This document shows positions 5,762-33,563 of a DNA stretch of 33,563 nt, piece by piece. The notes beneath the pieces are model-generated. The model searched no databases. It was not told the DNA's origin and saw only the letters and a program-made list of their open reading frames with translations. Numbering within the stretch: the stretch's first letter is position 1; every line of letters starts with the position of its first letter. Source of the stretch: a virus (taxonomy: Duplodnaviria; Heunggongvirae; Uroviricota; Caudoviricetes); the IMG/VR virus record IMGVR_UViG_2541047945_000006; one strand, 5' to 3'. Made by a program: the position numbers and the translations under genes.

Positions 5762-6374
5762 CGGAAGGAAGTCCAATCATCTTATTCAAATCTTCTACCC
5801 GTAAAGCAGGAAGTGCTGTACTTGCTTTATCTGCTTCTTTTGGTAGCAATTCTTTGCTTTCAGGCCAAACTTCAATAAGTCGCTTAACTGTTGTGACTGA
5901 GTTCAAAGCAGCCCATACATTTGATTCGATATCCTTTTTCTTGGCTTCAAGTTTTTGTTGCAATGCGCAGATTTCATCAAACCTTTTTGTTATTTCGTGC
6001 TCTGCGTCAAACATGCATTTATCTTTGGTCGGAGTAGGGAGCAATATATCTTCGCCGTTGCCGTCTTTCCCATATGAATGCCATCCAACCCTTCTGCCAG
6101 ATACAGTCAGATAAATTGAAGTAGAACGAACATCGTATGAGTAAAATGAACATCCCAGTTTTTCAAGTTCTTCACTTATAGCTACTAACTTGGAATATAA
6201 ATGATCCACTTCCTCAGTTTTCTTTTTACCGCCAAACGCAATAACTCTGGCGTCAAGTGCAAGCTGGTTCTTTAACTTTGTTACTTCTTCAAGTTCAGTG
6301 AAAACCCCAGACTTAATTAAAGCGTTACGAGCGATTTCCTCTTTCATTCTCGTAGTTAAGCGGATTGATGACAT
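5751..6374 (-). CDS. Hypothetical protein (207 aa) in the pL operon between N/sieB and cIII
   Basis: ATG at 6372-6374 with GAGAGGAA SD; charged, coiled-coil-like N-terminus; no family recognised. Confidence 0.65.
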   Translation of the reverse strand: MSSIRLTTRMKEEIARNALIKSGVFTELEEVTKLKNQLALDARVIAFGGKKKTEEVDHLYSKLVAISEELEKLGCSFYSYDVRSTSIYLTVSGRRVGWHSYGKDGNGEDILLPTPTKDKCMFDAEHEITKRFDEICALQQKLEAKKKDIESNVWAALNSVTTVKRLIEVWPESKELLPKEADKASTALPALRVEDLNKMIGLPSEAA

Positions 6375-6385
6375 ATTAATTCCTC

Positions 6386-6589
6386 TCAAATAAGTGGTTT
6401 GCTGCCTAATTTCATTTTCTGGCGACCAACACAAGTCACCCCCATTTCACTGCGTGGCTTGCGGTAGTAAAGATTGTGCCTGTCTTTTAACCACATCAGG
6501 CTCGGTGGTTCTCGTGTACCCCTACAGCGAGAAATCGGATAAACTCTATTCACCCCTACAGAGAGCAAAAGAGAAACGCCGATGAACAA
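6386..6589 (-). other. ORF whose C-terminus resembles the lambda N C-terminus (possible N gene remnant)
   Basis: 67-aa track ORF ending ...YYRKPRSEMGVTCVGRQKMKLGSKPLI, which resembles the lambda N end (...WYSKPGERGITCSGRQKIKGKSIPLI) as I recall it; it lacks an arginine-rich motif. Confidence 0.4.
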
Positions 6590-13183: not shown

Positions 13184-13604
13184 AATTCGATCCCCAGCAC
13201 ATCAGCAAAACGCTATTCACGCAGTACAGCAAATCCTTCCAGACCCAACCAAACCAATCGTAGTAACCATTCAGGAACGCAACCGCAGCTTAGACCAAAA
13301 TCGGAAGCTTTGGGCTTGCCTTGGTGACGTTTCGCGTCAGGTTGAATGGCATGGTCGATGGCTGGATGCAGAAAGCTGGAAGTGCGTTTTTACAGCAGCA
13401 TTAAAGCAGCAGGACGTTGTTCCTAACCTTGCCGGGAATGGCTTTGTGGTAATAGGCCAGTCAACCAGCAGGATGCGTGTAAGCGAATTTGCGGAGCTAT
13501 TAGAGCTTATACAGGCATTTGGTACAGAGCATGGCGTTAAGTGGTCAGACGAAGCGCGACTGGCTCTGGAGTGGAAAGCGCGATGGGGAGATCGGGCTGC
13601 ATGA
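13164..13604 (+). CDS. ninB: NinB (Orf-family recombination mediator)
   Basis: 146-aa protein essentially matching lambda NinB as I recall it (MKKLTFEIRSPAHQQNAIHAVQQILPDPTKPIVVTIQERNRSLDQNRKLWACLGD...). Confidence 0.9.
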   Translation: MKKLTFEIRSPAHQQNAIHAVQQILPDPTKPIVVTIQERNRSLDQNRKLWACLGDVSRQVEWHGRWLDAESWKCVFTAALKQQDVVPNLAGNGFVVIGQSTSRMRVSEFAELLELIQAFGTEHGVKWSDEARLALEWKARWGDRAA

Positions 13605-14128
13605 CTATCAAATCAAATACGCCAGCACACGACAAGGACTGCTGGCAAACGCCGCTTTGGCTTTTTGATGCACTGGATATTGAGTTTGGATTCTGGCTGG
13701 ATTCGGCAGCGAGCGACAAAAACGCTCTGTGCGCTCACTGGCTAACTGAGGCTGATGACGCGCTAAATTCTGAGTGGATAAGCCACGGTGCAATCTGGAA
13801 TAACCCACCGTACAGCAATATCAGGCCGTGGGTGGAAAAAGCCGCTGAGCAGTGCATACAACAGCGACAGACGGTAGTTATGCTTGTGCCAGGGGATATG
13901 TCTGTCGGATGGTTCAGCAAGGCTCTGGAGAGTGTCGACGAAGTTCGCATTATCACTGATGGACGGATTAATTTTATCGAACCATCGACAGGGCTGGAGA
14001 AGAAGGGAAACAGTAAAGGCTCAATGCTGCTGATTTGGCGACCGTTCATCAGTCCTCGACGGATGTTTACTACCGTATCCAAAGCGGCATTGATGGCGAT
14101 CGGGCAGGGCGTCAGGAGGGCGGCATGA
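13601..14128 (+). CDS. DNA N6-adenine methyltransferase (phage Dam-like)
   Basis: NPPY catalytic motif (IWNNPPYSN); internal ATG at 13601 overlaps the ninB stop (ATGA), preferred over the track's upstream start. Confidence 0.82.
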
Positions 14129-17087: not shown

Positions 17088-17162
17088 GGGTCAGTCGTAT
17101 AAAGGTCATTACGGAAGGCTGTTAACCTTCTTATCGTGGTTCGAGTCCACGCTGTCCCGCCA
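17088..17162 (+). tRNA. tRNA-like gene, predicted anticodon GUU (Asn)
   Basis: Manual cloverleaf: acceptor GGGTCAG/CTGTCCC (one mismatch), U8, D-loop with GG, perfect 5-bp anticodon stem with loop CTGTTAA, T-arm CGTGG-TTCGAGT-CCACG, encoded GCCA 3' end. Confidence 0.5.
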
Positions 17163-17167
17163 AACAT

Positions 17168-17243
17168 GCTGGTTTAGCTCCAATGGTAGAGCGGTCGCCT
17201 TGTAAGCGAATGGGTAGCGGTTCAAGTCCGTTAACCAGCACCA
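17168..17243 (+). tRNA. tRNA-like gene, predicted anticodon UGU (Thr)
   Basis: Manual cloverleaf: perfect acceptor GCTGGTT/AACCAGC, D-arm GCTC/GAGC, anticodon loop CTTGTAA, T-loop TTCAAGT, encoded ACCA 3' end. Confidence 0.6.
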
Positions 17244-17361: not shown

Positions 17362-17607
17362 ATGAAATCAATGGACAAAATCTCAACTGGCATTGCCTAC
17401 GGAACATCTGCTGGTAGTGCGGGATACTGGTTTTTGCAGTGGTTGGATCAGGTCAGTCCGTCACAGTGGGCTGCGATTGGAGTGCTTGGAAGCCTTGTGT
17501 TGGGTTTTCTCACTTATCTGACAAATCTGTATTTCAAAATCAGAGAAGACAGACGAAAGGCTGCGAGTGAACCGCCCCGGGTTTCCTGGAGAGTATTTTA
17601 TCTGTGA
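17362..17607 (+). CDS. S: Phage-21-type pinholin S21 with IS-altered C-terminus
   Basis: Dual-start MKSMDKI and SAR-type TM region match S21 from memory; the last codons (ARGE-stop in intact S21) are replaced by a read-through into the IS end ([13 protein letters not shown]). Confidence 0.8.
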
Positions 17608-17609
17608 AC

Positions 17610-18500
17610 TCAGGCTGCCAGATCATCGTTTCCGATGGAAGCATAATAAGCTTTTTCTGCTTCTGCCGGAGGAGTATGGCCCAGCCTTTCCAGCAATCGT
17701 CGATTGTTATACCAGTCCACCCACGTGAGTGTGGCCAGTTCCACTTCTGCACGGTTTTTCCAGCTCTTACGGTGTATTACCTCCGCTTTGTAAAGACCAT
17801 TGATGCTCTCCGCCATCGCGTTGTCATACGAGTCGCCTGTACTTCCTGTTGATGCCAGTAATCCGGCTTCCTTAAGCCGCTGTGTGTAGGCCAGCGATAC
17901 ATACTGAGAACCTTTATCACTGTGATGGACCGTGCCGGACGGTCGACGGGCCCATAACGCCTGCTCCAGTGCATCCAGCACGAATGTCGTCTCCATGGAC
18001 GATGAGACCCGCCACCCCACAATGTATCCGGCAAACACATCAATGATGAACGCCACATAGACGAAGCCCTGCCATGTGCTGACGTAAGTAAAATCAGCCA
18101 CCCACAGCTGGTCAGGTCGTTCTGCCACGAACTGACGGTTTACGCGGTCGCCTGCGGCAACGGCTTTCCGGCTGATGGTCGTACGGACCTTTTTACCCCG
18201 GAGAACACCGGCAAGTCCCATAACCGCCATGAGACGTGCCACAGTGCATCTGGCCACTCTGATACCTTCCCGTAACAACTGACGCCAGACTTTACGCACA
18301 CCGTATACCTTGTGATTTTCATCGTATACGCGCTGTATCTCTTTCTTCAGCCAGTCATCGCGCTGCGCACGGGCACTGCGTTTATCCGGATGATGTCGCT
18401 GTTGCTGACAGTGGTAATACGTTGACGGGGCAATATGCAGTTCGCTGCATAGCGGTCCGACCCCGTACTGCTCACGCAGCTTATCCAGCAGTGGCATCAT
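17610..18500 (-). CDS. IS3-family transposase OrfB (DDE integrase-like catalytic domain)
   Basis: 296-aa ORF of typical IS3-family OrfB character; overlaps orfA as expected for -1 frameshift fusion. Confidence 0.85.
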
Positions 18501-18823
18501 TTTTTCCAGAGGCGGTCGAACTCCGCCTTCGCAAAATAAGCGGAAGCCTGGCGAAGGATATCGTTACTGCGGCGCAGTTCACGATTTTCACGCTCCAGCT
18601 CTTTCAGACGCTGACGTTCAGCGGTGGTGAGCCCTCCATCACCGCCCCCGGTATCCCGCTCATGCTGGCGAACCCAGACACGCAGAGTCTCCGGCGTACA
18701 GCCAATCTTTGGAGCAATGGAACAAATTGTCGCCCATTGTGAGTCATATTCGCCCTGACTTTCCAGAACCATACGGACTGCCCGTTGACGGACTTCAGGG
18801 GAAAAACGAGTATTTTTAGTCAT
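18497..18823 (-). CDS. IS3-family transposase OrfA (HTH plus leucine zipper)
   Basis: 108-aa ORF ([57 protein letters not shown]...) that I recall as IS629/IS1203-type OrfA. Confidence 0.85.
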
Positions 18824-18889
18824 CCTGTTTACCTCTTTCTCAGGAAGTTTAGTCTCCAGGATTCCCGGGGCGGTTCAGAGAGGTGAATA

Positions 18890-19387
18890 ATGCCTCCATC
18901 ATTACGAAAAGCCGTTGCTGCTGCTATTGGTGGCGGGGCTATTGCCATAGCATCTGTGTTAATCACTGGCCCAAGTGGTAACGATGGTCTGGAAGGTGTG
19001 AGACATAATCCTTACAAAGACATAGTTGGTGTATGGACTGTATGTTACGGGCATACAGGAAAAGACATCATTCCCGGTAAAACGTATACCGAAGCAGAAT
19101 GCAAAGCCCTCCTGAATAAAGACCTTGCCACGGTCGCCAGACAAATTAACCCGTACATCAAAGTCGATATACCGGAAACAACGCGCGGCGCTCTTTACTC
19201 GTTCGTTTACAACGTGGGTGCAGGCAATTTCAGAACATCGACGCTTCTTCGCAAAATCAACCAGGGTGATATCAAAGGTGCGTGTGACCAGCTACGTCGC
19301 TGGACATACGCTGGCGGTAAGCAATGGAAAGGGCTGATGACCCGTCGTGATATTGAGCGTGAAGTCTGTTTGTGGGGGCAGCAATGA
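18890..19387 (+). CDS. R: SAR endolysin (phage 21 R21-like lysozyme)
   Basis: N-terminal Gly/Ala-rich signal-anchor-release domain ([18 protein letters not shown]) followed by a lysozyme domain; begins 10 nt after the IS end. Confidence 0.85.
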
Positions 19388-19821
19388 GCAGGTTAACCGC
19401 GATTATCTCCGCTCTGATTATCAGCATCATCGTCTGCCTGTCATGGGCTGTTAATCATTACCGTGATAACGCCATCGCCTACAAAGAGCAGCGCGATAAG
19501 GCCGCATCCACAATCGCTGACATGCAGAAGCGTCAACGTGATGTAGCAGAACTTGACGCCAGATACACAAAGGAGCTTGCTGATGCTAACGCGACTATCG
19601 AAAGTCTCCGTGCTGATGTTTCTGCTGGTCGTAAGCGCCTGCAAGTCGCCGCCACCTGTGCAAAGTCAACGACCGGAGCCAGCAGCATGGGCGATGGAGA
19701 AAGCCCAAGACTTACAGCAGATGCTGAACTCAATTATTACCGTCTACGAAGTGGAATCGACAGGATAACCGCGCAGGTTAACTACCTGCAGGAGTACATC
19801 AGGACGCAATGCCTTCGATGA
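19384..19821 (+). CDS. Rz: Rz i-spanin
   Basis: Start at internal ATG ([31 protein letters not shown]...) overlapping the R stop; resembles lambda Rz from memory. Confidence 0.8.
19583..19768 (+). CDS. Rz1: Rz1 o-spanin (lipoprotein) embedded in Rz in the +1 frame
   Basis: 61-aa ORF with lipobox LVVSAC and a proline-rich mature region, nested inside Rz. Confidence 0.65.
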
Positions 19822-19995
19822 TAGCGATAATTTTACTCATCATCCTTCACATCTGGCTCTGTAGACAGGGTGGTGATCACTTCTGGAGTAAATCCAGATT
19901 AAACATCTCATTGCTGATGCTTGATATTGAGCATCTGGCGCGCAGTAAGGGGCTGCGTTGAGATAAGAGCCAGTTCATTACAAATACCAGGATTT

Positions 19996-20023
19996 AGCCT
20001 CGCATTCGCGGGGCTTTTTTATA
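19996..20023 (+). terminator. Putative intrinsic terminator after the lysis cassette
   Basis: AGCCTCGC-ATTC-GCGGGGCT hairpin (one G-T pair) followed by TTTTTTAT. Confidence 0.5.
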
Positions 20024-20164
20024 TCTGAATTTCACAGCGCATCTCACGCGCATATTAACGAGAGCCTTTCAGTAAGCGAGCCTGAGAAATGCCGTTATAG
20101 GTGGCGACCTCTCTCGGGCGGCTTTTCTGTGAGACAGGCTCACTTTCTAAAAGGTAAAGACGCT

Positions 20165-20662
20165 ATGAAAGCAATCACGCTTTTTAATACACCGATTCGT
20201 GTTGATGAATCAGGAATGATCTGCCTCACTGATATGTGGAAAGCCAGTGGTAAAAGTGAATCTGAATCTCCGTACCACTACCTGCGAAACAAGCAGACCA
20301 AAGAGTTCTTAGCCGAGCTGGAGAAAAACCACGAATCTGTGGTTTTTACTGAGCGCGGTGTACACGGTGGAACATATGGCGGGAAGTTTGTTGCTTATGA
20401 TTATGCAGCATGGCTAAACCCCGGGTTCAAGTACGCGGCCTATAAAGTCCTCGATGACTACTTCACCGGAGAACTTCAGCATCGCAACAGCTTAAGTGCG
20501 CAGCTCAACATGAAATGTCATGAGTTTGACCAGAAGAAAGACATGGCGAGCTTCTGCGGACAAGGGCTGGCGGCATGGCGCTATACGAAGCCAGTGTTGG
20601 TCGCTGAGATTAACTCCCTGGCTAACCAGCTGCAGATTACGATCCCCGGGCTTCCGGGATGA
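20165..20662 (+). CDS. KilA-N domain protein (moron between lysis and packaging genes)
   Basis: Start at internal ATG (MKAITLFN...); KilA-N/APSES-like features (...GTYGGKFVAYDYAAWLNPGFKYAAYKVL...). Confidence 0.6.
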   Translation: MKAITLFNTPIRVDESGMICLTDMWKASGKSESESPYHYLRNKQTKEFLAELEKNHESVVFTERGVHGGTYGGKFVAYDYAAWLNPGFKYAAYKVLDDYFTGELQHRNSLSAQLNMKCHEFDQKKDMASFCGQGLAAWRYTKPVLVAEINSLANQLQITIPGLPG

Positions 20663-20916
20663 GTGATCGTGTCATTGAATGCGCCTCCAGAGCGGGGCGC
20701 GACTTCTCAGAGTTCATGAAAGGCGAGAAGGGCATGATGGAAGCATTGGCCTCGGTGGATGAGTTTGGCGAGCAGCTGCGCCTCAACGGCTGTGTCAATC
20801 ATCACTTTGTTAGCTACATGATGCGGAACTCGATCATGCAGGCATTCATGGACATGGCAAAAGCCGAGAGGAAAGAAGAGCGCCGGCGTAAGCGAGCGGA
20901 AGCAAAAGCGAAGTAG
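20659..20916 (+). CDS. Hypothetical protein (85 aa) with Arg/Lys-rich C-terminus
   Basis: Translationally coupled to the KilA-N gene (ATGA overlap). Confidence 0.5.
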   Translation: MSDRVIECASRAGRDFSEFMKGEKGMMEALASVDEFGEQLRLNGCVNHHFVSYMMRNSIMQAFMDMAKAERKEERRRKRAEAKAK

Positions 20917-21196
20917 CCATTACAAAGCCCATTTACGGGTGGGCTTGATAATGAAACCGGAATTTATTCTGGGCCACCAGTTAACGGCAGTACCACGAAA
21001 CAACCCAAGCCAGTAAGCGGGGAAATAACACTGGCAGCCACTGAAAGATGAACCTCCAGCCTTATGGCAAAAAAGATTCTTTGTGGTGGCGGACTGATGG
21101 AAAGACATCGGTTATTGCAGAGGCCATTCAATGAGCGGTCTCGACAATGAGTAAAAGCACAATATGTGAGGCAGAAACGAATTGGTTATATTGAGT

Positions 21197-21340
21197 TTAG
21201 GATGGATTTGAGCCCATAGGGAGTGGGAACGTAACCCAGCCCCCGAGGTAGAAGAGAGCGACATCGACCATGGTGAGTTCTTCGGTATTCGAGGTTAAGC
21301 GTTTTACCGTATTCATGAATTTTTCTGAATATTTCCTCAT
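21197..21340 (-). CDS. Hypothetical small protein (47 aa) inside the IR-bracketed segment
   Basis: ATG at 21338-21340 preceded by AGGGGG SD; the C-terminal codons are encoded by the left inverted repeat; taken from the tail of track ORF 21197-21889. Confidence 0.3.
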   Translation of the reverse strand: MRKYSEKFMNTVKRLTSNTEELTMVDVALFYLGGWVTFPLPMGSNPS

Positions 21341-21475
21341 GGCAACCCCCTTGCTTTTGGCTATATCGCTAACAACTTTTACTGCTTTTGGTATCAGTGG
21401 ATAAAACAAAAGTCCTACTGCTGTAATGTTTTTCACCACTTGAACGATATCGCTTCCGGCACTCCCTATGGGCTC
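21210..21475. repeat. Pair of perfect 16-bp inverted repeats (GAGCCCATAGGGAGTG / CACTCCCTATGGGCTC) bracketing a 266-bp segment
   Basis: Exact reverse complements at 21210-21225 and 21460-21475, in the non-coding region upstream of the small terminase gene. Confidence 0.7.
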
Positions 21476-21512
21476 GTAGGGAGATAGTTTAACTAAATAA
21501 AGAGAATAAGCA

Positions 21513-22040
21513 ATGGCACTCACCGACAAACAAGAAATGTTCTGTCGCGAGTACCTCATCGATTTAAACGCCACGCAAGCGGCTATTCGGGCGGGGTACA
21601 GCGCAAAGACAGCTAACCGTACCGCATCCGAAAACCTGTCAAAACATGACATCAAGTTAAGAATCGCCGAACTGAAAGCGCAACGCAATGATCTTGTTGG
21701 TATTAACGCAGAATATGTACTTAATCGCCTTATTGAAATCGACCAGATGGATGTGCTCGACATTCTCCTGCAAAACGGCGAGTTAAAGCCAATTAAAGAC
21801 TGGCCTAAGGTATGGCGCACAACGCTATCAGGAATGGATGTCGTGGAGATGGTATCCGCAGATAGCGCCGCACTTCTGAAGAAAATCAAATGGCCTGATA
21901 AGGTTAAAAACCTCGAACTTCTTGGTAAGCATGTTTCTGTTCAGGCGTTTAAAGAACAAGCTTCTCACGAATTAACAGGCAAAGACGGCGGCGCAATTCA
22001 GATTGAAACATCACCGATGAGCACTCTATTTGGAAAATGA
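21513..22040 (+). CDS. Terminase small subunit
   Basis: 175-aa ORF immediately upstream of and overlapping the large terminase (ATGA); N-terminal HTH-like region (MALTDKQEMFCREYLIDLNATQAAIRAGYS). Confidence 0.85.
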   Translation: MALTDKQEMFCREYLIDLNATQAAIRAGYSAKTANRTASENLSKHDIKLRIAELKAQRNDLVGINAEYVLNRLIEIDQMDVLDILLQNGELKPIKDWPKVWRTTLSGMDVVEMVSADSAALLKKIKWPDKVKNLELLGKHVSVQAFKEQASHELTGKDGGAIQIETSPMSTLFGK

Positions 22041-23452
22041 CCTCGATTAATCCTATCTTTGAACCGTTCATTGAGGCGCATCGCTACAAAGTCGCCAAAG
22101 GCGGTCGAGGTAGCGGTAAATCATGGGCAATTGCGAGGCTGCTTGTTGAAGCGGCGCGCCGACAGCCTGTGCGTATTCTCTGCGCTCGTGAACTGCAAAA
22201 CAGTATCAGCGATTCGGTAATCCGGTTGCTTGAAGACACCATCGAGCGGGAAGGGTATTCGGCTGAGTTTGAAATTCAGCGTTCCATGATTCGTCATCTC
22301 GGAACGAATGCTGAATTCATGTTCTACGGCATCAAAAACAACCCGACGAAGATTAAATCGCTCGAAGGCATTGATATCTGCTGGGTGGAAGAAGCGGAAG
22401 CGGTAACGAAGGAATCATGGGATATCCTGATACCAACCATCCGTAAGCCGTTCTCTGAAATATGGGTGAGCTTTAACCCGAAGAACATACTCGACGATAC
22501 CTATCAGCGATTCGTTGTAAATCCTCCCGATGATATTTGCCTGCTGACGGTGAACTACACCGACAACCCGCACTTTCCTGAGGTTCTCCGTCTGGAGATG
22601 GAAGAGTGTAAACGCAGAAATCCGACACTGTATCGTCACATCTGGCTTGGTGAGCCAGTAAGCGCAAGTGATATGGCAATCATCAAACGTGAATGGCTTG
22701 AAGCAGCAACCGATGCGCACAAGAAACTCGGATGGAAAGCGAAAGGCGCTGTTGTCTCTGCGCATGACCCATCAGATACAGGGCCAGATGCTAAAGGTTA
22801 TGCATCGCGTCACGGTTCGGTGGTTAAGCGCATTGCCGAAGGTCTGCTGATGGACATCAACGAGGGTGCTGACTGGGCTACTTCGCTGGCGATTGAAGAC
22901 GGCGCTGACCATTACCTGTGGGATGGTGATGGTGTTGGTGCCGGGCTACGCAGACAGACAACGGAAGCGTTCTCCGGCAAGAAAATCACCGCCACGATGT
23001 TCAAGGGCAGCGAATCGCCATTCGATGAAGATGCACCGTATCAGGCCGGAGCATGGGCTGATGAAGTCGTACAGGGCGACAACGTTCGCACTATTGGCGA
23101 TGTGTTCCGCAATAAGCGAGCGCAATTCTATTACGCGCTGGCTGACAGGCTGTATCTGACATATCGGGCGGTTGTCCACGGTGAGTATGCAGACCCCGAC
23201 GACATGCTGAGTTTCGACAAAGAAGCGATAGGCGAGAAGATGCTGGAGAAGCTGTTTGCAGAACTGACGCAGATTCAGCGCAAATTCAATAATAACGGGA
23301 AGCTGGAGCTTATGACTAAGGTCGAAATGAAGCAGAAGCTCGGTATTCCATCTCCTAACCTGGCTGATGCGTTGATGATGTGTATGCATTGCCCGGAGTC
23401 GGCTGCGCAACCCGACTATTCCAGTTACTCAATTCCTTGTGGTGTAGGTTGA
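22037..23452 (+). CDS. Terminase large subunit (headful type, Sf6/PBSX family)
   Basis: Walker A KGGRGSGKS near the N-terminus and C-terminal nuclease region; from memory closely resembles the Sf6-type large terminase. Confidence 0.92.
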   Translation: MTSINPIFEPFIEAHRYKVAKGGRGSGKSWAIARLLVEAARRQPVRILCARELQNSISDSVIRLLEDTIEREGYSAEFEIQRSMIRHLGTNAEFMFYGIKNNPTKIKSLEGIDICWVEEAEAVTKESWDILIPTIRKPFSEIWVSFNPKNILDDTYQRFVVNPPDDICLLTVNYTDNPHFPEVLRLEMEECKRRNPTLYRHIWLGEPVSASDMAIIKREWLEAATDAHKKLGWKAKGAVVSAHDPSDTGPDAKGYASRHGSVVKRIAEGLLMDINEGADWATSLAIEDGADHYLWDGDGVGAGLRRQTTEAFSGKKITATMFKGSESPFDEDAPYQAGAWADEVVQGDNVRTIGDVFRNKRAQFYYALADRLYLTYRAVVHGEYADPDDMLSFDKEAIGEKMLEKLFAELTQIQRKFNNNGKLELMTKVEMKQKLGIPSPNLADALMMCMHCPESAAQPDYSSYSIPCGVG

Positions 23453-23453
23453 T

Positions 23454-25652
23454 ATGGCAGAAAAAAAGATGACTGACTGGCATCGCAAGGTGCTGTGCAA
23501 CTTTGATAATGCCTGGTCAGCAACGCAGGATATGCGTGAGCAGATTATAGAAGCTCAACGCTTCGTCAGGGTGTCCGGCGCACAGTGGGAAGGCAGCACA
23601 AACGCTGGTTACTCATTTGATGAAGGCAGGTTTGAGCATTATCCGCGCTTTGAACTGAATAAGATTGCCCGTGAATGTGATCGCATCATTGGCGAGTATC
23701 GACAGAATCGCATCAGCGTTAAATTCAGACCGAAGGACGATAAGGCATCGGAAGCGTTAGCCGAAAAGATGAACGGCAAATTCCGCGCTGATTATCAGGA
23801 AACATCCGGTGGCGAAGCGTGTGATAACGCATTTGATGATGCTGTAACGGGCGGATTCGGTTGTTTCCGCATGTGTGCCGATTACGAAGATGAAATGGAT
23901 CCGAGTAACGAGCAGCGACGCATCAGCCTTCTTCCTGTTTACGACCCAGCGACATGCGTCTTCTTCGATCAGGACAGCAAGCAATATGACCGCTCTGATG
24001 CTATGTGGGCTATGGAAATGTTCTCCATGACGCCTAAAGCGTTCGAGGCTGAATACCCTGATTCCATCGCGGCAAGCCTTTCTCGTGATGACACTGGCAC
24101 TCAATATGACTGGTCAACTCCTGATGCTATCTATGTTGGTCGCTACTACGAAGTTCGCATAGAGAAGGTGAAGCTCACAGCATGGCGTAACCCTGTTAGC
24201 GGAGAAACGGCAATCTATGATGAAGATCAAATCAAAGATATTGTCGACGAGCTGACCGATGGCGCATTCGAACTGATTGGCGAGCGGACAGTGAAGAAAC
24301 GCCGCGTTTATTGCGGTCTTCTGTCTGGCGCTGAATGGCTGGAAGAACCGAAGCGTATTCCGGGTGAACATATTCCTCTCATCCCGGTATATGGGCGTCG
24401 CTCATTTGTTGATAATCAGGAGCGAATCGAAGGCCACGCTGCAAAAGCGATGGATGCACAGCGTCTTGAGAACCTGATGGTTTCCATGATTGCAGATAAC
24501 GCCACTCAGGCTGGCGGCGATGGCATTCCTGTAGTTGATGTTGACATGATTCCTGGTCCTCTTGCCACTCATTGGGCGGAGCGCAACAAAAAGCGCCCGG
24601 CGTTCCTGCCGATGGTCAGTCTGAAAAACAAAAACGGAGATATTACTGCGCAGGCTCAGGTCAGCAGTTATACGCCTCCGACACAAATGCCGCCAGCTCT
24701 TGCCGGGCTATTGCAGTACACCGGAACGGCTATTCAGCAAATTACAGGTGCGTCGCAGCTTGAGAACATGCCGAGCAACGTCGCCACCGATACCGTTGAT
24801 AGCATCTTTAACAGGATGGACACGCAGTCCTATATCTACATGGACAACATGGCTAAATCCATGCGCCGCGCTGGCGTTGTGTGGCTTTCTATGGCGCGTG
24901 AGGTCTATGGCAGCGATACGCCAATGCGCATCGTTAATGAGGACGGCAGCGATGACGTGGCGCTGATGACTGGTGAAGTGATTGACCGTCAGACAGGGCA
25001 GGTTATCGCGCTTAACGACCTTTCGCAGGGTAACTATGAAGTGACTGTCGATGTTGGTCAGTCGTTCGCTACTCGCCGTGATGCAACGGTTAAGTCGTTA
25101 CTTTCCATGCTGGCACTTATCCCGCCAGGAACGCCGAAGCATGACCTTGTATCGTCGATGATTCTCGACAATATGGACGGCGAAGGGATGGACGACCTGA
25201 AAGAATACAACCGCAATCAGTTGCTTCTGTCTGGCGTTATCAAGCCGAGAACGCCTGAAGAACAGCAGATGGTTGAACAGGCGAAACAACAACAGGCCAG
25301 TCAGCCAGATCCGGCTATGGTTGCAGCGCAAGGTCAGCTTCTTGCTGGTCAGGCTGAATTGCAGAAAGCGCAGAACGAACAGGCAGCCATTCAGGTTAAA
25401 GCATTCCAGGCACAGACTGATGCTCAGGTTGCAGCGGCAAACGTTGTGAAAATCCTCGCATCTGCCGATAGCCAGCAGAAATCTGATATCCGCGAGGCTC
25501 TGAAACTGCTCGGACAGTTCCAGCAACAGCAAGGAGACAATGCCCGTGCTGATGCAGAGCTTGTCCTGAAAAGTCAGGCACAGGGACATGCGCAGCGCAT
25601 GGACATCAGCAGCATCCTGCAAAAATCAACTCAGCAACAACCACAGCAGTAA
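23454..25652 (+). CDS. Portal protein (P22 gp1-like)
   Basis: 732-aa ORF; the Gln-rich C-terminal barrel region (PEEQQ...AQGQLLAGQAELQKAQNEQ...RMDISSILQ) resembles P22 portal from memory. Confidence 0.9.
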   Translation: MAEKKMTDWHRKVLCNFDNAWSATQDMREQIIEAQRFVRVSGAQWEGSTNAGYSFDEGRFEHYPRFELNKIARECDRIIGEYRQNRISVKFRPKDDKASEALAEKMNGKFRADYQETSGGEACDNAFDDAVTGGFGCFRMCADYEDEMDPSNEQRRISLLPVYDPATCVFFDQDSKQYDRSDAMWAMEMFSMTPKAFEAEYPDSIAASLSRDDTGTQYDWSTPDAIYVGRYYEVRIEKVKLTAWRNPVSGETAIYDEDQIKDIVDELTDGAFELIGERTVKKRRVYCGLLSGAEWLEEPKRIPGEHIPLIPVYGRRSFVDNQERIEGHAAKAMDAQRLENLMVSMIADNATQAGGDGIPVVDVDMIPGPLATHWAERNKKRPAFLPMVSLKNKNGDITAQAQVSSYTPPTQMPPALAGLLQYTGTAIQQITGASQLENMPSNVATDTVDSIFNRMDTQSYIYMDNMAKSMRRAGVVWLSMAREVYGSDTPMRIVNEDGSDDVALMTGEVIDRQTGQVIALNDLSQGNYEVTVDVGQSFATRRDATVKSLLSMLALIPPGTPKHDLVSSMILDNMDGEGMDDLKEYNRNQLLLSGVIKPRTPEEQQMVEQAKQQQASQPDPAMVAAQGQLLAGQAELQKAQNEQAAIQVKAFQAQTDAQVAAANVVKILASADSQQKSDIREALKLLGQFQQQQGDNARADAELVLKSQAQGHAQRMDISSILQKSTQQQPQQ

Positions 25653-25742
25653 TTAACCCATAACGTGCAATGGCTGTCTTTATGAGGCCTGGCACCCTAT
25701 TGCCTTCCGATGGGCTGAACATCGAGTAAACAGGGGTAACAA

Positions 25743-26636
25743 ATGGACCAGATGGCAGAAAACACACCAGAAGTTGAAATCGAAACCGACGCGTCAGAGC
25801 AGATTCCTGATGATGTCGAACTGGCTGAAGAAGTCGAAACAGAAGATGGCAGTGAGTCCTCCGGCAATGATGCAGAGGAAGCTACTGAAACTGATGACGA
25901 CGAATCAGAACAGGAATTCTACTTTGGTGACGAAAAGCTGGATTCGCCAACCAGTGAAGATAGCGCAGAGCATGGACTGGTAAAACACCTGCGCAAGACG
26001 ATTAAAGAGAAAGACCGCGAGCTGAAAGAGCTGATGCGTCAGTCTCAGAAACCCGTCGAGCAGCAGCCGGTAATCACTCAACCACCGCGAATGCCAAAAC
26101 TGGATGATGAGGACATCGGTTTCGATGAAGAAATCTATCAGCAACGCATGGCTAAGTGGGCAGAGGATAACGGCAAGTACCAGGAGCAAATACGAGAGCG
26201 GAAACGAGAGGAAGAGGCGCGTACCGCAACGCTTCAGCAGAAAGCAGCCAATTACATGCATAGAGTAAAAGCACTGAAAGTGGCTGGCTACCAAGATGCA
26301 GAGCAGGCTGTACGCGAAGATGTTCCTGTTCACATTCAGGACATGATCCTTCTTGAGTCAGAGAAGCCGGAAATCGTTGTTCTGGCACTCGGCCGCAACG
26401 CTGAACTGCGCAAGCAACTGGCAGAAGCTACCAACCCCGTAGCAATTGGTCGTCTGCTGGAACGTATCGAATCTAAGGCCAGAATCATGCCAAAAGCAAA
26501 AACCACGGCAGCCACAACCCCGACAGTTAAGGGGAGCAACGGCGCAGTAATCAATAACCTCGACAAACTGAAAGCCAAGGCGCTGGAAACTGGTGACTGG
26601 ACGCCGTATTTCGCCGCTAAAAAGGCAAAAAAATAA
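25743..26636 (+). CDS. Scaffolding protein
   Basis: 297-aa highly acidic, helical protein located between portal and coat genes. Confidence 0.78.
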   Translation: MDQMAENTPEVEIETDASEQIPDDVELAEEVETEDGSESSGNDAEEATETDDDESEQEFYFGDEKLDSPTSEDSAEHGLVKHLRKTIKEKDRELKELMRQSQKPVEQQPVITQPPRMPKLDDEDIGFDEEIYQQRMAKWAEDNGKYQEQIRERKREEEARTATLQQKAANYMHRVKALKVAGYQDAEQAVREDVPVHIQDMILLESEKPEIVVLALGRNAELRKQLAEATNPVAIGRLLERIESKARIMPKAKTTAATTPTVKGSNGAVINNLDKLKAKALETGDWTPYFAAKKAKK

Positions 26637-26654
26637 CCTATCGGAGCATTAAGC

Positions 26655-27908
26655 ATGGCTAACCAATTAGCAAAAGACCTTGAAATCATGTTCGAAAACT
26701 ACGTTGAAGGCTTTGAGGCCGCCTGCGTAGTTTCCCGTAACGCTAAAAAATTCCGTCCCGGTGATACAGCAATGCAGCGAGCAGGTGATGTTCTGTATCG
26801 TCCGCAGCATTACCACATGAACATTGAGGAAGGCCTCGACCTCAGCAGCAAAACGCCAACAGCACTGGTTCAGCGCCTTGTTCCTTCTGTGTTCAAGGAG
26901 CCGAAAAACATTCTGTACACTCTGGATGCGCGTGAAATGCGTGACCCGGAACATAAAACTGAAGCTGGTCGCGCCGCAGGTATGCGCCTTGCTGCACAGA
27001 TTGACTCTGACCTGATTTCCATGGTCACGCAGCGTGCTACTAACGTGATCACAATGGCTGACTCAACCACTGGTTCACAGGGCCGTGATTTGTGGAACTG
27101 TGCGGCAGGCATTGATGCCACCATGACGGCGATTGGTGTACCACAGGGTATCAACCGCCGCTCTTTCTGGAACCCCTTCAACTACAAAGACCTTGCTGGC
27201 GAGCTTGGTCACCGTGCCTATGCTCAGGGCGCAACCCTGACAGCATACGAAAAAGCGCAGATCCCTCCTGTTGCGTCCTTCGATAGCTACAAGACCGATA
27301 TTTCTGGTCGTGTTCCGAAGGGTACAGCAACTTCCCTGACGCTGGCGGCTGAACCTGCGCACAAGGTTGAAGCGAAAGATGCCAACGATATGCCAGTGGA
27401 TAACCGACAGGGGACTATTACGGTATCTGCATCTGGGTTGCAGGTTGGCGATGCGTTCACCATTGCTGGCGTGAATTCTGTACACCAGATCACCAAAGAC
27501 ACCACCGGGCAGCCGCAGGTATTCCGCGTTCTGGCAGTAAGCGGAACGACAGTAACTATCTCCCCGAAAATTCTGCCGCCTGACAACGCAGATGTCGCCA
27601 GCCGTCCATATGCAAACGTTGATGCTAACGCGGCAAATGGTGCAGCAATTACCATTCTCAACAAAAATGCCGCACCGGCTAACCTGTTCTGGGCTGATGG
27701 TTCTGTTGAACTGATGTACGGCAAACTGGCGTTCCCGACTGGTCAGGGTCCACAGGTAATGACAGCAACCACCGAGCAGGGCGCTACGCTGATCATGTCT
27801 TACGCCTTCGACCATATCAAAGGCGTAACCACTGCGCGTTTCACCACTCTGTACGGTTGCTCTGTACTGGTTCCTGAATATACGGGCATCGTTATTGCCG
27901 GGCAGTAA
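26655..27908 (+). CDS. Major capsid (coat) protein
   Basis: 417-aa ORF in the canonical position with strong SD; followed by a strong terminator/attenuator. Confidence 0.85.
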   Translation: MANQLAKDLEIMFENYVEGFEAACVVSRNAKKFRPGDTAMQRAGDVLYRPQHYHMNIEEGLDLSSKTPTALVQRLVPSVFKEPKNILYTLDAREMRDPEHKTEAGRAAGMRLAAQIDSDLISMVTQRATNVITMADSTTGSQGRDLWNCAAGIDATMTAIGVPQGINRRSFWNPFNYKDLAGELGHRAYAQGATLTAYEKAQIPPVASFDSYKTDISGRVPKGTATSLTLAAEPAHKVEAKDANDMPVDNRQGTITVSASGLQVGDAFTIAGVNSVHQITKDTTGQPQVFRVLAVSGTTVTISPKILPPDNADVASRPYANVDANAANGAAITILNKNAAPANLFWADGSVELMYGKLAFPTGQGPQVMTATTEQGATLIMSYAFDHIKGVTTARFTTLYGCSVLVPEYTGIVIAGQ

Positions 27909-27913
27909 TTTTA

Positions 27914-27938
27914 GTGGGGCTTCGGCCCCATTTTTATT
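27914..27938 (+). terminator. Intrinsic terminator/attenuator after the coat gene (GTGGGGC-TTCG-GCCCCA plus TTTTTATT)
   Basis: GC-rich hairpin with a TTCG loop and a T-run directly after the coat stop. Confidence 0.65.
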
Positions 27939-27949
27939 GGGAGAAGACA

Positions 27950-28138
27950 ATGGCACGAACAATGCTCTATAAGCCTGGCAACATGATCACCTGTGGTCAG
28001 TTTGCTGTCGATTACATCATTGTTGATGACGAAGAAGTTAAATCTCACCTGAAAAAAGGCTGGGTAAAAACCCCTGAAGAAACCGCAACGAAGCAAAAAG
28101 TGGCTAAGGCGGAAGAAGATGGCGAAAACGAAGGGTGA
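27950..28138 (+). CDS. Hypothetical small protein (62 aa)
   Basis: Internal ATG of track ORF 27914-28138, preceded by GGGAG; downstream of the coat terminator. Confidence 0.45.
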   Translation: MARTMLYKPGNMITCGQFAVDYIIVDDEEVKSHLKKGWVKTPEETATKQKVAKAEEDGENEG

Positions 28139-28580
28139 TCTCGTTCTTAAGGCTTTACGAAAAGCCGGGCTGTATTCCAATGCCACGTTGATAGATGCTG
28201 ACCCTCAGGCAATTGAAGATGCCATTAATGACCTCGAAGACATGATGGCAGCATGGCAGGAGAAAGGTATCGAGCTTGGGTATCAGTTTGCTGATACAGA
28301 AAACGGCATCATGCCGTTACCTGACGATGATTCAGGTATCCCTGCATGGGCAAATGATGGCGTCGCTTTGAAACTCGCTGTGCAAGTGTGCATGGATAAC
28401 GTCATTCAGCCGTCAGACGCTCTCCTTACCGCTGCTGACAGTGCATATCAAACAATCTGTATCGCTTTAACCAAAATACCACCACTTGAGCGGCGAAATG
28501 ACATGCCTCGCGGTAGTGGTAACAAAAGCGCGTTTACGTGGAATCGGTTTTACATCGAGAAAGATGATTCGAGTACGTGA
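28119..28580 (+). CDS. Head completion / tail adaptor protein (P22 gp4-like)
   Basis: 153-aa ORF; N-terminus (KTKGDLV..ALRK.G...ATL.D..PQ...DA..DLE.MMA.W) resembles P22 gp4 from memory. Confidence 0.78.
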   Translation: MAKTKGDLVLKALRKAGLYSNATLIDADPQAIEDAINDLEDMMAAWQEKGIELGYQFADTENGIMPLPDDDSGIPAWANDGVALKLAVQVCMDNVIQPSDALLTAADSAYQTICIALTKIPPLERRNDMPRGSGNKSAFTWNRFYIEKDDSST

Positions 28581-28589
28581 GGTGAATAA

Positions 28590-30008
28590 ATGCCAATTCA
28601 GCAACTTCCGCTTATGAAAGGTGTCGGCAAAGACTTTCGAAACGCCGACTATATCGACTATCTGCCAGTGAATATGTTGGCTACACCCAAAGAAATCCTC
28701 AACAGCAGCGGATATCTTCGCTCATTCCCGGGCATTGCCAAACGCTCTGATGTAAACGGCGTATCGCGCGGCGTCGAGTACAACATGGCGCAGAATGCTG
28801 TTTATCGTGTGTGTGGCGGCAAGCTCTACAAAGGCGAAAGCGAAGTCGGTGATGTCGCCGGAAGTGGTCGTGTATCAATGGCGCATGGTCGGACATCACA
28901 GGCGGTAGGCGTTAATGGTCGACTGGTCGAGTATCGCTATGATGGCACGGTTAAAACAGTCTCAAACTGGCCTACAGACAGCGGATTCACTCAGTATGAG
29001 TTAGGTTCAGTCCGCGATATTACGCGCTTACGTGGGCGTTATGCGTGGTCAAAAGACGGAACTGATTCATGGTTTATCACTGACCTTGAAGACGAATCAC
29101 ATCCTGACCGTTACAGCGCACAATATCGTGCCGAGTCTCAGCCTGACGGCATCATCGGCATCGGAACATGGCGAGACTTCATCGTCTGCTTTGGTTCATC
29201 GACGATTGAATATTTCTCCCTGACGGGGGCAACCACCGTTGGTGCCGCTTTGTATGTCGCACAGCCATCGCTGATGGTGCAGAAAGGCATTGCCGGAACT
29301 TACTGCAAAACGCCGTTTGCTGATTCGTATGCGTTTATCAGCAATCCGGCAACGGGTGCGCCGTCTGTATACATCATCGGATCAGGTCAGGTATCACCAA
29401 TCGCCAGCGCGAGCATTGAGAAAATCCTCCGCTCCTACACTGCTGATGAACTGGCTGATGGCGTGATGGAATCGTTGCGGTTTGATGCTCATGAATTGCT
29501 GATTATCCACCTTCCGCGCCATGTTCTTGTTTACGACGCATCTTCAAGCGCCAATGGTCCGCAATGGTGTGTACTGAAAACAGGCTTGTATGACGATGTG
29601 TACCGCGCTATCGACTTCATTTACGAAGGAAATCAGATAACGTGCGGCGATAAGCTGGAATCGGTGACCGGGAAATTGCAGTTCGATATCAGCAGCCAGT
29701 ACGACAAGCAGCAGGAACACCTGCTGTTTACTCCGTTGTTCAAAGCGGATAACGCCAGAGTGTTTGACTTTGAGGTTGAATCGTCAACTGGCGTTGCGCA
29801 GTACGCCGACCGCCTTTTTCTCTCTGCAACCACTGACGGCATCAATTACGGGCGTGAGCAGATGATTGAGCAGAATGAACCGTTCGTTTACGACAAACGC
29901 GTTTTGTGGAAGCGCGTCGGGCGAATAAGGAAAAATGTCGGCTTCAAATTGCGCGTTATCACTAAGTCACCTGTCACTCTGTCAGGCTGCCAGATAAGGA
30001 TCGAGTAA
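28590..30008 (+). CDS. Tail accessory factor (P22 gp10-like)
   Basis: 472-aa ORF closely matching P22 gp10 from memory ([46 protein letters not shown]...). Confidence 0.85.
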
Positions 30009-30961
30009 TGGCTGATTCGAATCTCAATGAGCCGGTAATCATTCAGGCTACACGACTCGACACATCAGTCCTTCCACGCAATATCTTCTCGCAGTCATAT
30101 CTGCTGTACGTTATCGCACAGGGTGCTGATGTTGGTAACGTGGCTAACAAGGCCAACGAAGCAGGGAAGGGGGCTTATGATGCACAGGTGAAGAATGATG
30201 AGCAGGATGTCACCCTTGCAGACCATGAATCAAGAATTGCTGCTGCTGAAGCAATTCTCGTCAATCATGAACATAGAATCGCAGCAGCGGAAAGCACTCT
30301 TGCAGATCATGAAACAAGGATTACGGCTGCCGAAACAGAGCTGGCTGATCACGAGACGCGAATTGCTGCCAATGAATCTGAGTTAGCAAACCATGATGCG
30401 CGAATAACTCAGAATACAACCGATATCAACGCACTTGATACCAGGCTCACAGCGGCAGAGGGAAGTATTTCGACGCTACAAAGCACAGTTGGTGATCACT
30501 CAACAAGAATATCTGCGCTTGAGTATGCCACCACGCGCAAGAAATCAGAGGTTGTTTACTCAGGAGTATCGGTAACCATTCCAACAGCGCCGACCAACCT
30601 TGTTAGCCTGCTGAAAACGCTCACGCCGTCATCCGGGACGTTGGCACCATTCTTCGATACTGATAACAACAAGATGGTTGTTTTCAACGAGAACAAAACC
30701 CTGTTCTTCAAGCTGTCGATTGTCGGGACGTGGCCCAGCGGAACCGCAAACAGGTCAATGCAGCTAACCTTTTCCGGATCTGTTCCTGACACACTGGTAA
30801 GCAGTCGCAACTCGGCGACAACAACCGATAACATCCTGTTAGCTACGTTCTTCAGCGTGGATAAAGACGGCTTTCTTGCCACAAATGGCAGCACGTTAAC
30901 CATTCAGTCAAATGGTGCGGCGTTTACTGCCACAACCATCAAGATAATCGCGGAGCAGTGA
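30008..30961 (+). CDS. Tail needle (P22 gp26 / Sf6 gp9-like) with C-terminal knob domain
   Basis: N-terminus matches gp26 ([34 protein letters not shown]); a central coiled coil of five 14-aa repeats ([11 protein letters not shown]..); about 140-aa Ser/Thr-rich C-terminal domain. Confidence 0.8.
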
Positions 30962-31416
30962 TGATTCAGTTCAAACCAACGCGAAACATCGACCTGATAG
31001 AAGCCGTAGGAAATCACCCTGACATTATCGCCGGGAGCAACAACGGTGATGGATACGACTACAAACCTGATTGCCGTTACTTTGAGGTGAATGTGCACGG
31101 GCAGTTCGGCGGCATTGTTTACTATCAGGAGATTCAGCCGCTGACATTCGATTGCCACGCCATGTACCTGCCAGAGGTTCGCGGATTCAGCAAGGAAATC
31201 GGTCTGGCGTTCTGGCGATACATTCTGACTAACACCACCGTTCAGTGCGTCACATCGTTCGCTGCGCGCAAATTCCGCCACGGTCAGATGTACTGCGCAA
31301 TGATTGGCCTTAAGCGTGTAGGAACCATCAAGAAATACTTCAAAGGCGTGGATGACGTGACGTTTTACAGCGCAACACGCGAAGAACTAATCGACTTCCT
31401 GAATCACGGGAGATAG
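30958..31416 (+). CDS. Head assembly protein, gp14-like (assigned by position)
   Basis: 152-aa ORF between the needle and gp7-like genes, translationally coupled; assignment rests on synteny with P22. Confidence 0.55.
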
Positions 31417-31418
31417 CC

Positions 31419-32111
31419 ATGTTATATGCATTTAAGCTGGGCAGAAAACTGCGCGGCGAGGAACCTTATTGCCCTGAAAAAGGCGGGAAAGGTGGCAGCT
31501 CTGATAAAAGCGCAAAGTATGCAGCAAAAGCTCAGAAGTATGCAGCAGACCTGCAAAATCAGCAGTTCAACACCATCATGAACAACCTGAAGCCGTTTAC
31601 TCCTCTGGCTGATAAGTATGTCGGCAGCCTCGAGAACTTATCGTCTCTGGAAGGGCAAGGTCAGGCACTTAACCAGTATTACAACTCTCAGCAGTACAAA
31701 GATCTTGCTGGTCAGGCTCGCTATCAGAGTCTGGCGGCAGCGGAAGCAACAGGTGGATTGGGTTCCACTGCAACCGGTAATCAGTTAGCAACAATCGCAC
31801 CAACGCTTGGTCAGCAGTGGCTGTCTGGTCAGATGAACAACTACCAGAATCTGGCAAACGTTGGGCTTGGTGCTCTGCAAGGTCAGGCAAACGCAGGGCA
31901 GACATATGCCAACAACATGAGTCAGATTTCGCAGCAAAGTGCGGCTCTTGCAGCGGCAAATGCCAACAGACCATCAGCAATGCAATCTGCTATTGGCGGA
32001 GGTGCGTCTGGTGCTATTGCTGGGGCCGGACTTGCGAAATTAATTGGTTCATCAACTCCGTGGGGGGCTGCGATCGGCGGCGGTCTTGGTCTGCTTGGCT
32101 CGTTGTTTTAA
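31419..32111 (+). CDS. DNA ejection protein (P22 gp7-like)
   Basis: 230-aa ORF closely matching P22 gp7 from memory (MLYAF.LGRKLRGEEP.YPEKGGKGGSSDKSAKYAA.AQKYAADLQNQQFNTIMNNLKPFTPLADKYVG...). Confidence 0.82.
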   Translation: MLYAFKLGRKLRGEEPYCPEKGGKGGSSDKSAKYAAKAQKYAADLQNQQFNTIMNNLKPFTPLADKYVGSLENLSSLEGQGQALNQYYNSQQYKDLAGQARYQSLAAAEATGGLGSTATGNQLATIAPTLGQQWLSGQMNNYQNLANVGLGALQGQANAGQTYANNMSQISQQSAALAAANANRPSAMQSAIGGGASGAIAGAGLAKLIGSSTPWGAAIGGGLGLLGSLF

Positions 32112-32121
32112 GGGGTAATCA

Positions 32122-33329
32122 ATGGCTACGTGGCAACAGGGTATTAATTCTGGTGGTTTTCTGGCTGGCATTGGTGCGCAAAACGAGAATGCGCCAAAGG
32201 CAAGCGACATTAACGCAACGCTTGGTCTGATCCGCGAAAACAATGAACTGGCTCGCTCAGGTGCAAATAACGTTGGTCTGACCGCGTTACGTGGTCTGGC
32301 TGGAGTTGCTGATATTTACAATCAGGAACAGCAACAGAAAGCGATTAGTGCGTTCAATAAGGTTCACGCTGATGCATGGGCTTCTGGTGATCCATCGGGA
32401 CTATTTAAGTTTGCCAAGGAAAATCCAGCGTTTGTTGCACAGGCACAACAGGCGTTTTCCGGTCTTAATGAGCAGCAACGTAACGATATGGGCGATTTAG
32501 CCATGAGGGCTAACGTCGCTCTTTCTCAGGGACCGGAAGCCTACAGTAAATTCATTACTGACAACAAGGACAGGTTAAATCGCGTTGGTGCTAATGCTGA
32601 CTGGATGATTCAGACAGGTATCCAGAATCCAGAGCAGCTATCACACATGCTGACTACTATGACGCTAGGGGCTGTTGGTCCGGATAAAATGCTGGATTAT
32701 CAGGATAAGATGGTTGGTCGCCAACTTGAGAAAGGGCGATTGGATGAAAGCATCCGTCAGGCTGACATGGAGAACGCGAGAGGATGGGCAAATATCCAAA
32801 ACGCTCAACTAGACAGGGCTCAGCGGGCACAAATGCATAATGATAACGTAGCCCTGAAGTTGCAGGAATTAGGGATGAAACAACAGGAAAGCGGAAAGAT
32901 TGACCCAAAACTTGTTCGAGATCTGAATAGTGATATTAATGGGTTCTCAAAGAATTATTCTGCAATGCGCAGTGCTTCTGACAACCTACAAGCCCTTGGG
33001 AAGCGCAACACTCCAGCCGCGCAGTTGGGAATGATTTTCAACTATATGAAATCGCTGGATCCGCAATCTGTGGTACGCGAAGGTGAGCAAGTGCAGGTAA
33101 AACGCACTGATGGAATATTCGGCACACTTGGTAACTATGTTAGCCAATTATCTAACGGCAAGATGCTGAATAATGAGCAAGTCCAAGACTTAATCAACAC
33201 CTCAAAACTGATGGCAAATACTGAAGGCGAAAAGTTTAACCAGCAAATGGATGATTATCTTTCAACTTATGGAGATTCTCTCCCCAGCGGACTAACTAAG
33301 CAATTGCAATCCAGAAAAGCCAAGCTGTA
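32122..33329 (+). pseudogene. DNA ejection protein gene (P22 gp20-like) truncated by IS insertion
   Basis: gp20-like ORF in the syntenic position; the reading frame runs into the IS end at 33330, giving the same foreign tail [12 protein letters not shown] seen on the holin; P22 gp20 is about 470 aa versus about 403 native residues here. Confidence 0.75.
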
Positions 33330-33563
33330 TGAACCGCCCCGGGTTTCCTGGAGAGTATTTTATCTGTGAACTCAGGCTGCCAGATCATCGTTTCCGATGG
33401 AAGCATAATAAGCTTTTTCTGCTTCTGCCGGAGGAGTATGGCCCAGCCTTTCCAGCAATCGTCGATTGTTATACCAGTCCACCCACGTGAGTGTGGCCAG
33501 TTCCACTTCTGCACGGTTTTTCCAGCTCTTACGGTGTATTACCTCCGCTTTGTAAAGACCATT
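33330..33563 (-). mobile_element. Second IS629-like copy, same orientation as the first, cut by the window edge
   Basis: Sequence 33330-33563 matches 17568-17801 along its whole length by eye, starting with the same terminal repeat TGAACCGCCCCGGGTTTCCTGGAGA. Confidence 0.85.
33372..33563 (-). CDS. IS3-family transposase OrfB, 3' portion only (partial at window edge)
   Basis: Placed by offset identity with orfB of the first IS copy (17610-18500). Confidence 0.7.
   Translation of the reverse strand, partial: NGLYKAEVIHRKSWKNRAEVELATLTWVDWYNNRRLLERLGHTPPAEAEKAYYASIGNDDLAA

Follow-up and report, generated by a model that had tools for sequence, protein, structure and literature searches.

Does the insertion sequence (IS) at the right end of this stretch of DNA truly interrupt an ejection gene of a P22-like phage, how did it come there, and can the prophage still deliver its DNA? 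The stretch (hereafter the window, 33,563 nt) is part of a P22-like (Lederbergvirus) prophage located between torS and torT in two isolates, E. coli UMEA 3609-1 and UMEA 3592-1. An earlier sequence-only reading of the window had suggested that two copies of the same IS lie in it, one in the holin gene and one in a gene resembling gene 20 of P22. On the basis of the current results, we consider it highly likely that IS629 transposed into gene 20 of this prophage, beside an independent copy at the holin site, and that ejection was very probably disabled as a result. The features on which this analysis is built are collected in Table 1.

Table 1. Features of the two IS629 copies and of the interrupted genes (positions refer to the window unless a locus label is given).
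Feature	Position	Strand	Details
gp7 ejection-protein homologue	31419-32111	+	PF25688 P22_gp7, E=4e-133; directly upstream of gene 20
Gene 20::IS629 fusion ORF	32122-33369	+	415 aa
Phage-21-type class II holin::IS fusion	17362-17607	+	81 aa, PF04971
Lysozyme gene	18878-19387 region		165 aa; starts 10 nt after IS copy 1
IS629 copy 1	17568-18877	-	Complete, 1310 bp
orfA of IS629 copy 1	18497-18823	-	108 aa, HTH_Tnp_1
orfB of IS629 copy 1	17610-18500	-	296 aa, rve DDE domain
ALIL frameshift pseudoknot RF01497	18426-18542		Inside copy 1, 120 bits
Left GAG of 3-bp target duplication, copy 1	17565-17567		
Right GAG of 3-bp target duplication, copy 1	18878-18880		
IS629 copy 2	33330-33563	-	First 234 nt from the orfB-side end; terminal repeat TGAACCGCCCCGGG...
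Left GTA of 3-bp target duplication, copy 2	33327-33329		
Right GTA of 3-bp target duplication, copy 2	L003 12557-12559; L014 5095-5097		Outside the window; adjoins the opposite IS end
Segment bracketed by the direct IS629 copies	18878-33329	+	14,452 bp

A repeat search detected one direct-repeat family in the window, whose two members (17568-17801 and 33330-33563; 234 nt each, 100% identical) were spaced 15,762 bp from start to start. A perfect repeat of 234 nt is not a matter of chance, and it bore out the previous statement that an identical IS end begins at 33330 in the same orientation as the copy at the holin. The complete first copy was 99.9% identical over positions 1-1310 to features that the depositors of LC567824.1 and LC567828.1 had annotated as 'IS3 family IS629', and counterparts with 100% identity were present in many E. 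coli genomes. Matches to rve, rve_3 and HTH_21 (Pfam) were found besides HTH_Tnp_1, and the terminal inverted repeats were imperfect with 41-nt arms (repeat pair I2). Copy 1 also showed the organization by which members of the IS3 family are recognized, that is, orfA and orfB with a programmed -1 frameshift signal. The target duplications made by IS629 are 3-4 bp long (PMC3271280), and both copies carried a duplication of 3 bp (GAG/GAG and GTA/GTA). Judged by the identity of 99.9% to annotated IS629, the domain content and the frameshift pseudoknot, the repeated element is IS629 of the IS3 family. It should be noted that in GCA_000461415.1 copy 1 is interrupted by 1130 N (L004 10302-11431), whereas it is complete in the window. 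A terminator and promoter scan of the IS region gave a background level only.

The identity of the interrupted gene was supported by several lines of evidence. The Pfam family PF16928 (Inj_translocase, 'DNA/protein translocase of phage P22 injectosome') matched residues 12-219 of the ORF with 355 bits (cut-off 29.7; E=1.7e-106). By tblastn, the product was 87.7% identical to that of P22 gene 20 over amino acids 1-212 and 78% identical to that of the annotated gene 20 of HK620 over residues 1-272, and PHROG 917/2534 ('released from the phage upon host infection') matched the ORF as well. The surrounding genes followed the order 14-7-20-16, with gp14 (DUF2824), gp7 (PF25688) and a 707-aa protein of the gp16 type (PHROG 770), and the gene order from terminase to tailspike was that of P22-like phages. 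Judged by similarity and gene order, the interrupted ORF is a true homologue of P22 gene 20, in agreement with the sequence-only reading. The C-terminal half of the gene is mosaic, and the version present here is common to the phages E212, EC.P3, S.Kent 1-2-1 and SEN22; the gp20 of SEN22 showed an overall identity of 74-77% (tblastn and alignment), and gene 20 of E212 is 99.3% identical to the uninterrupted allele of E. coli EC45.

The fusion ORF encodes the native gp20 residues 1-404 followed by 11 residues of IS origin, with the stop codon located within the IS. The intact allele is 1350 nt long and encodes 449 aa, so that the fusion loses 45 residues (DIQQPAQQQTQQATSGGQTFREGMTAKNPKTGQKIIYRNGQWQPM). 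A cut within the gene at about residue 403 had been proposed before; the truncation stands, and the position has to be shifted by one residue, since the target DNA continues with TGAA like the end of the IS and E404 is thereby regenerated, which makes the shared prefix 404. The foreign tail is the same as that of the holin ORF, also as previously stated, because the two genes enter the IS end in one and the same reading frame. When the whole collection was searched for exact matches to the 415-aa protein, only two contigs were returned, KE702425.1 (GCA_000461415.1) and KE702417.1 (GCA_000461395.1), which according to NCBI belong to E. coli UMEA 3609-1 and UMEA 3592-1, and the two fusion proteins, that of gene 20 and that of the holin, were found together in exactly these two isolates. 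In the 90% identity cluster (632 members), the 14 other members listed were all 443 or 449 aa in length, and among those listed a length of 415 aa occurred only here. The 415-aa 'DNA transfer protein' in the database should thus be regarded as an IS fusion and not as a natural variant of gp20. As a side observation, the two fusion proteins have NCBI accession numbers that differ by 266 in one isolate and by 18 in the other, which probably reflects contig ordering; despite this spacing, the gene neighbourhoods reported for the two isolates are the same.

What the loss of 45 residues would mean for the protein can be approached from its relatives. A homologue search with the C-terminal half gave 23 matches, mostly partial proteins, in which the tail motif was conserved. 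The last 18 residues, NPKTGQK(I/L)IYRNG(Q/K)WQ(P/Q)M, were kept in homologues only 57-77% identical, and the preceding linker varied freely. One homologue (P0010) had a quite different tail. In an AlphaFold2 model of residues 128-449, which was shallow (9 sequences) and had a mean pLDDT of 64.8, the last helix ended at ~397, the pLDDT was below 50 for residues ~408-423, and residues 429-448 formed a small three-stranded sheet (pLDDT 76-82). From this model we infer that the IS would remove a tethered linker and a small terminal module, and that the helical domain itself would be left intact.

In P22, gp20 is required for DNA delivery (PMC10461980; PMC8402733). It spans the periplasm as a dodecameric channel, and its tail (residues 436-471) has been modelled beside the N-terminus of gp16 and the inner membrane (bioRxiv 10.64898/2026.09.03.749273). 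Two amber mutations of P22, amH1032 and amL100, remove 33 and 66 C-terminal amino acids of gp20 and lead to non-functional virions, and gp20 and gp16 have to match each other (PMC10461980). Since P22 gp20 without its last 33 or 66 residues is non-functional, a loss of infectivity is likely here too, with the amber data to be read as coming from a different mosaic class, in which the C-terminal half of gp20 is not confidently alignable with the one studied here. By this analogy, the truncation by 45 residues very probably abolishes DNA delivery and the phage would be disabled, which gives a firmer footing to the earlier suggestion of a prophage that is probably non-infectious. Particles of the prophage would most likely assemble yet fail at the step of DNA delivery.

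The insertion might also affect the next gene. The gene 16 homologue downstream was intact (707 aa), and it normally starts 16 nt before gene 20 ends; loss of this overlap may lower the translation of gene 16. A polar effect of IS629 on gene 16 is doubtful, because a lambdoid O157 phage carrying stx2::IS629 in its late operon was still plaque-forming and kept the IS, which was not strongly polar (PMC7430833). A Q-type antiterminator is present in the prophage.

Some of these observations would suit a milder view of the insertion, namely, that the truncated gp20 still works, or that excision restores gene 20 often enough for infectious particles to be made. The last helix predicted in the C-terminal domain ends ahead of the cut, and only the tethered linker and small module are taken away; the divergent tail of P0010 points in the same direction, and gp20 tolerates extensive mosaic exchange (PMC10461980). 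The plaque-forming stx2::IS629 phage shows that IS629 need not be polar. In addition, IS629 undergoes precise excision when the level of transposase or IEE is raised (bioRxiv 10.1101/2023.06.07.543989), and precise excision of IS629 would restore gene 20. However, the removal of just 33 C-terminal residues is enough to make P22 gp20 non-functional, the terminal motif is conserved across diverged gp20 homologues, none of the 14 other cluster members listed has the shortened length, and the prophage genome is at or above the P22 headful size (see below). We therefore regard a still functional phage as unlikely and retain the reading that ejection was disabled. The locus also provides a natural C-terminal truncation within this gp20 class, which could be used to ask whether the conserved module serves the gp20-gp16 junction.

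The size of the prophage was estimated from its attachment sites. The window starts 83 nt to the right of an att core of 11 nt (CTTTAGGTGAA), and in a relative with 98.9% identity this core is present again ~72 nt upstream of torT (L025 5517), which corresponds to ~9.9 kb right of the window end; attR was not found within the locus of the strain itself and was placed with the help of this relative. With the right end taken from the relative, the prophage would be ~43,482 bp long, of which 2,626 bp are accounted for by the two IS copies and their duplications. The headful of P22 is 43,400 +/- 750 bp and is independent of genome length (PMC8402733). Because a genome of ~43.5 kb is about as large as this headful, packaged DNA would have little or no terminal redundancy if the capsid holds a P22-like amount, which we infer to be a second, independent handicap.

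The prophage also carries a number of other genes that deserve mention. A 348-aa ORF on the minus strand (7905-8951) lies between an N-like gene and the cI-type repressor gene; its only match was PHROG 6191 (unknown function), with no match in Pfam or PADLOC, and its position, reminiscent of that of lambda rexAB, points to an accessory or defence gene. The place that sieA occupies in P22, between gene 16 and the Mnt/Arc genes for immunity, is taken here by two genes on the opposite strand (L003 15161-16419, ~4 to 5.3 kb past the right end of the window), one for a PIN-domain protein of 182 aa and the other, overlapping it, for a 239-aa protein; their products matched only PHROGs of unknown function and neither had a PADLOC match. 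A tRNA-Asn (GTT) and a tRNA-Thr (TGT) are located between the Q-type antiterminator and the holin (17088-17243). A protein with the nucleotide modification associated domain 5 (Nmad5; 5751-6434, minus strand) in the early-left region and a Dam-family methylase (~13600-14128, plus strand) in the nin region together hint at DNA modification. Finally, an acyltransferase of 199 aa is encoded directly downstream of the tailspike gene (L003 20240-20839, ~8.8 kb right of the window end); it is likely an O-antigen-modifying gene of lysogenic conversion, which would stay expressed even in a defective prophage.

The upstream copy of IS629 had been described as lying in the holin gene. An insertion is indeed present there, in the same orientation as copy 2, but the damage had been overstated: the intact holin has 71 aa and the IS replaces only its last three native codons (RGE). 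Holin function may therefore be preserved, perhaps with a change in timing, and this IS copy may be nearly harmless. In O121:H19 FWSEC0006 (L005 3215-4524) and O145:NM FWSEC0002 (L006 3161-4470), an IS629-type element was found 2 nt past the stop codon of an S21-type holin gene, in the same orientation as here, with a GTC duplication and in unrelated prophages. With this, the holin/endolysin boundary counts two independent insertions and may be either a selected target or a regional hot spot. A broader view would be that the two IS629 insertions represent a recurrent, possibly selected, route of prophage domestication, with the boundary as a hot spot or selected target for IS629; we give this view only a slim chance. 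If it were true, the gene 20 insertion and the oversize genome would lock the prophage in, and immunity, SieB, the tailspike-linked acyltransferase and other accessory genes would be kept.

We also examined how copy 2 is joined to gene 20. What stops the window inside copy 2 is a scaffold gap, a run of N in its source. With copy 1 complete, the window fits GCA_000461395.1, in which this gap opens 235 nt into copy 2. The part within the window, in direct orientation relative to copy 1, includes the 3' end of the minus-strand orfB, and its 234 nt were 100% identical to the first 234 nt of copy 1. Such an ending raises the question of an assembly or scaffolding artefact, in which gene 20 would be intact or the IS end misjoined and no second copy would exist here; the window does end in the IS exactly at a scaffold gap, and a multi-copy IS is a classic cause of contig breaks. 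The scaffolds themselves speak against this. In both of them the IS end enters a run of N (1030 N and 815 N), past which the opposite end of the IS (...CCCGGGGCGGTTCA) is present for 80 or 236 nt, identical to copy 1, and then GTA and TGAAGATATTCAGCAG... are found. The left flank of the insertion is ...AAGCTGTA, and GTA is therefore duplicated, giving the layout CTGTA/IS/GTATGAAGAT. The assembled ends of copy 2 amounted to 238+80 nt in one assembly and 235+236 nt in the other, all equal to copy 1, with the interior represented by N (815-1030 N); with the estimated gaps included, the spans come to 1348 and 1286 bp, one above and one below the expected 1310 bp, and fit one copy. In two isolates, each assembled independently, the assembly thus runs from unique sequence into the IS at both junctions, the 3-bp duplication is perfect, and beyond the gap the gene resumes with its exact remainder. 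As the two assemblies agree on both junctions, an artefact is very improbable and was rejected.

The insertion point lies after nucleotide 1208 of the 1350-nt gene 20, and the corresponding empty site was available in E. coli EC45, which showed 100% identity over 1934 nt up to the junction and 99.84% identity over 5.66 kb past it. The two alignments overlapped by 7 nt, GTATGAA (GTA plus TGAA), and joining the 5' part in the window to the remainder after the IS, minus one GTA, gave exactly the 449-aa protein of EC45. The sequence-only reading had allowed for the right-hand IS being a separate insertion outside gene 20. The rightward extension found instead the far IS end, the GTA duplication, the untouched remainder of gene 20 and, past the gap, an intact gene 16, and copy 2 therefore entered gene 20 by a simple copy-in event that duplicated 3 bp (GTA). 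Since removal of the IS rebuilds the EC45 protein exactly, the insertion is recent and clean. The junction between gene 20 and the IS was absent among 5,426 complete E. coli genomes. In a separate observation, the gene 20 target sequence continues on the right of the IS with TGAA, the same four bases as the IS629 end (33330-33333; L001 7931-7934), and TGAA also occurs 2-3 nt right of the duplication at both holin-site insertions, which may be due to chance or to a weak preference for targets resembling the IS end.

The arrangement of two identical IS copies in direct orientation around a DNA segment recalls a composite transposon that arrived as a unit with its 14.4 kb, or a product of IS-IS recombination, but this is hardly credible and was rejected, as each copy has its own matching duplication and no outer duplication is shared (GAG left of copy 1 vs GTA right of copy 2), the bracketed genes keep the usual late-operon order of P22-like phages and are collinear with uninterrupted relatives, and taking out each IS restores the intact reading frames of holin and gene 20. 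Because each IS is flanked by its own duplication, GAG or GTA, copies 1 and 2 are independent insertions between which no recombination has occurred so far.

Long direct repeats are a substrate for RecA-dependent homologous deletion. The segment between the two copies contains the genes for endolysin, Rz, the KilA-N protein, the small and large terminase, portal, scaffold, coat, gp4, gp10, tail needle, gp14 and gp7 and the 5' 90% of gene 20. Recombination between the 1310-bp copies would delete 15,762 bp, from the endolysin gene through most of gene 20. The sequence-only reading had considered the bracketed segment prone to deletion; the interval and the inference are sound, and an IS-mediated deletion is a reasonable prediction; the full interval is retained in both sequenced isolates. 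No record among 5,426 complete E. coli genomes covered a synthetic deletion joint (holin'-IS629-'gene 20). The best matches to this query were PSS-11, in which an unrelated IS lies downstream of an intact lysis cassette, and the O121/O145 prophages with the IS just after the holin stop. The predicted 15.8-kb deletion could be sought in related isolates.

Taken together, insertions of IS629 into prophages, duplications of 3-4 bp, excision and prophage decay driven by repeats are already well documented, and the present case, in which the element equals copies and the target gene equals alleles already on record, adds a particular site in two presumably clonal isolates, with no new element or mechanism. 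It is an ordinary example of prophage decay, whose value lies mainly in annotation and strain biology: the prophage of UMEA 3592-1 and UMEA 3609-1 looks complete and is very probably defective in DNA delivery. Among the closest known systems are IS629 insertions in lambdoid prophages of E. coli (the IS1203/IS3411 isoforms; stx2::IS629 or IS1203v in O157:H7), which involve the same element (99.9-100% over 1310 bp), the same 3-bp duplication, the same orfA/orfB frameshift layout and, likewise, the interruption of a late-operon gene of a lambdoid prophage. In contrast with stx2::IS629, the target here is the ejection gene 20 of a P22-like prophage in UMEA isolates that are not O157. The amber mutants amH1032 and amL100 of P22 are also C-terminal truncations of gp20 and, with 33 and 66 aa, are similar in size to the 45 aa lost here; the present case differs from them in the C-terminal mosaic class, in the addition of 11 foreign residues and in the displacement of gene 16 by 1.3 kb from the end of gene 20 translation. 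The deletion between prophages in O157:H7 FRIK1275/1625 (PMC7430833) likewise involved long identical direct repeats in prophage DNA; there the deletion has taken place, whereas here it is only predicted and both isolates keep the interval.
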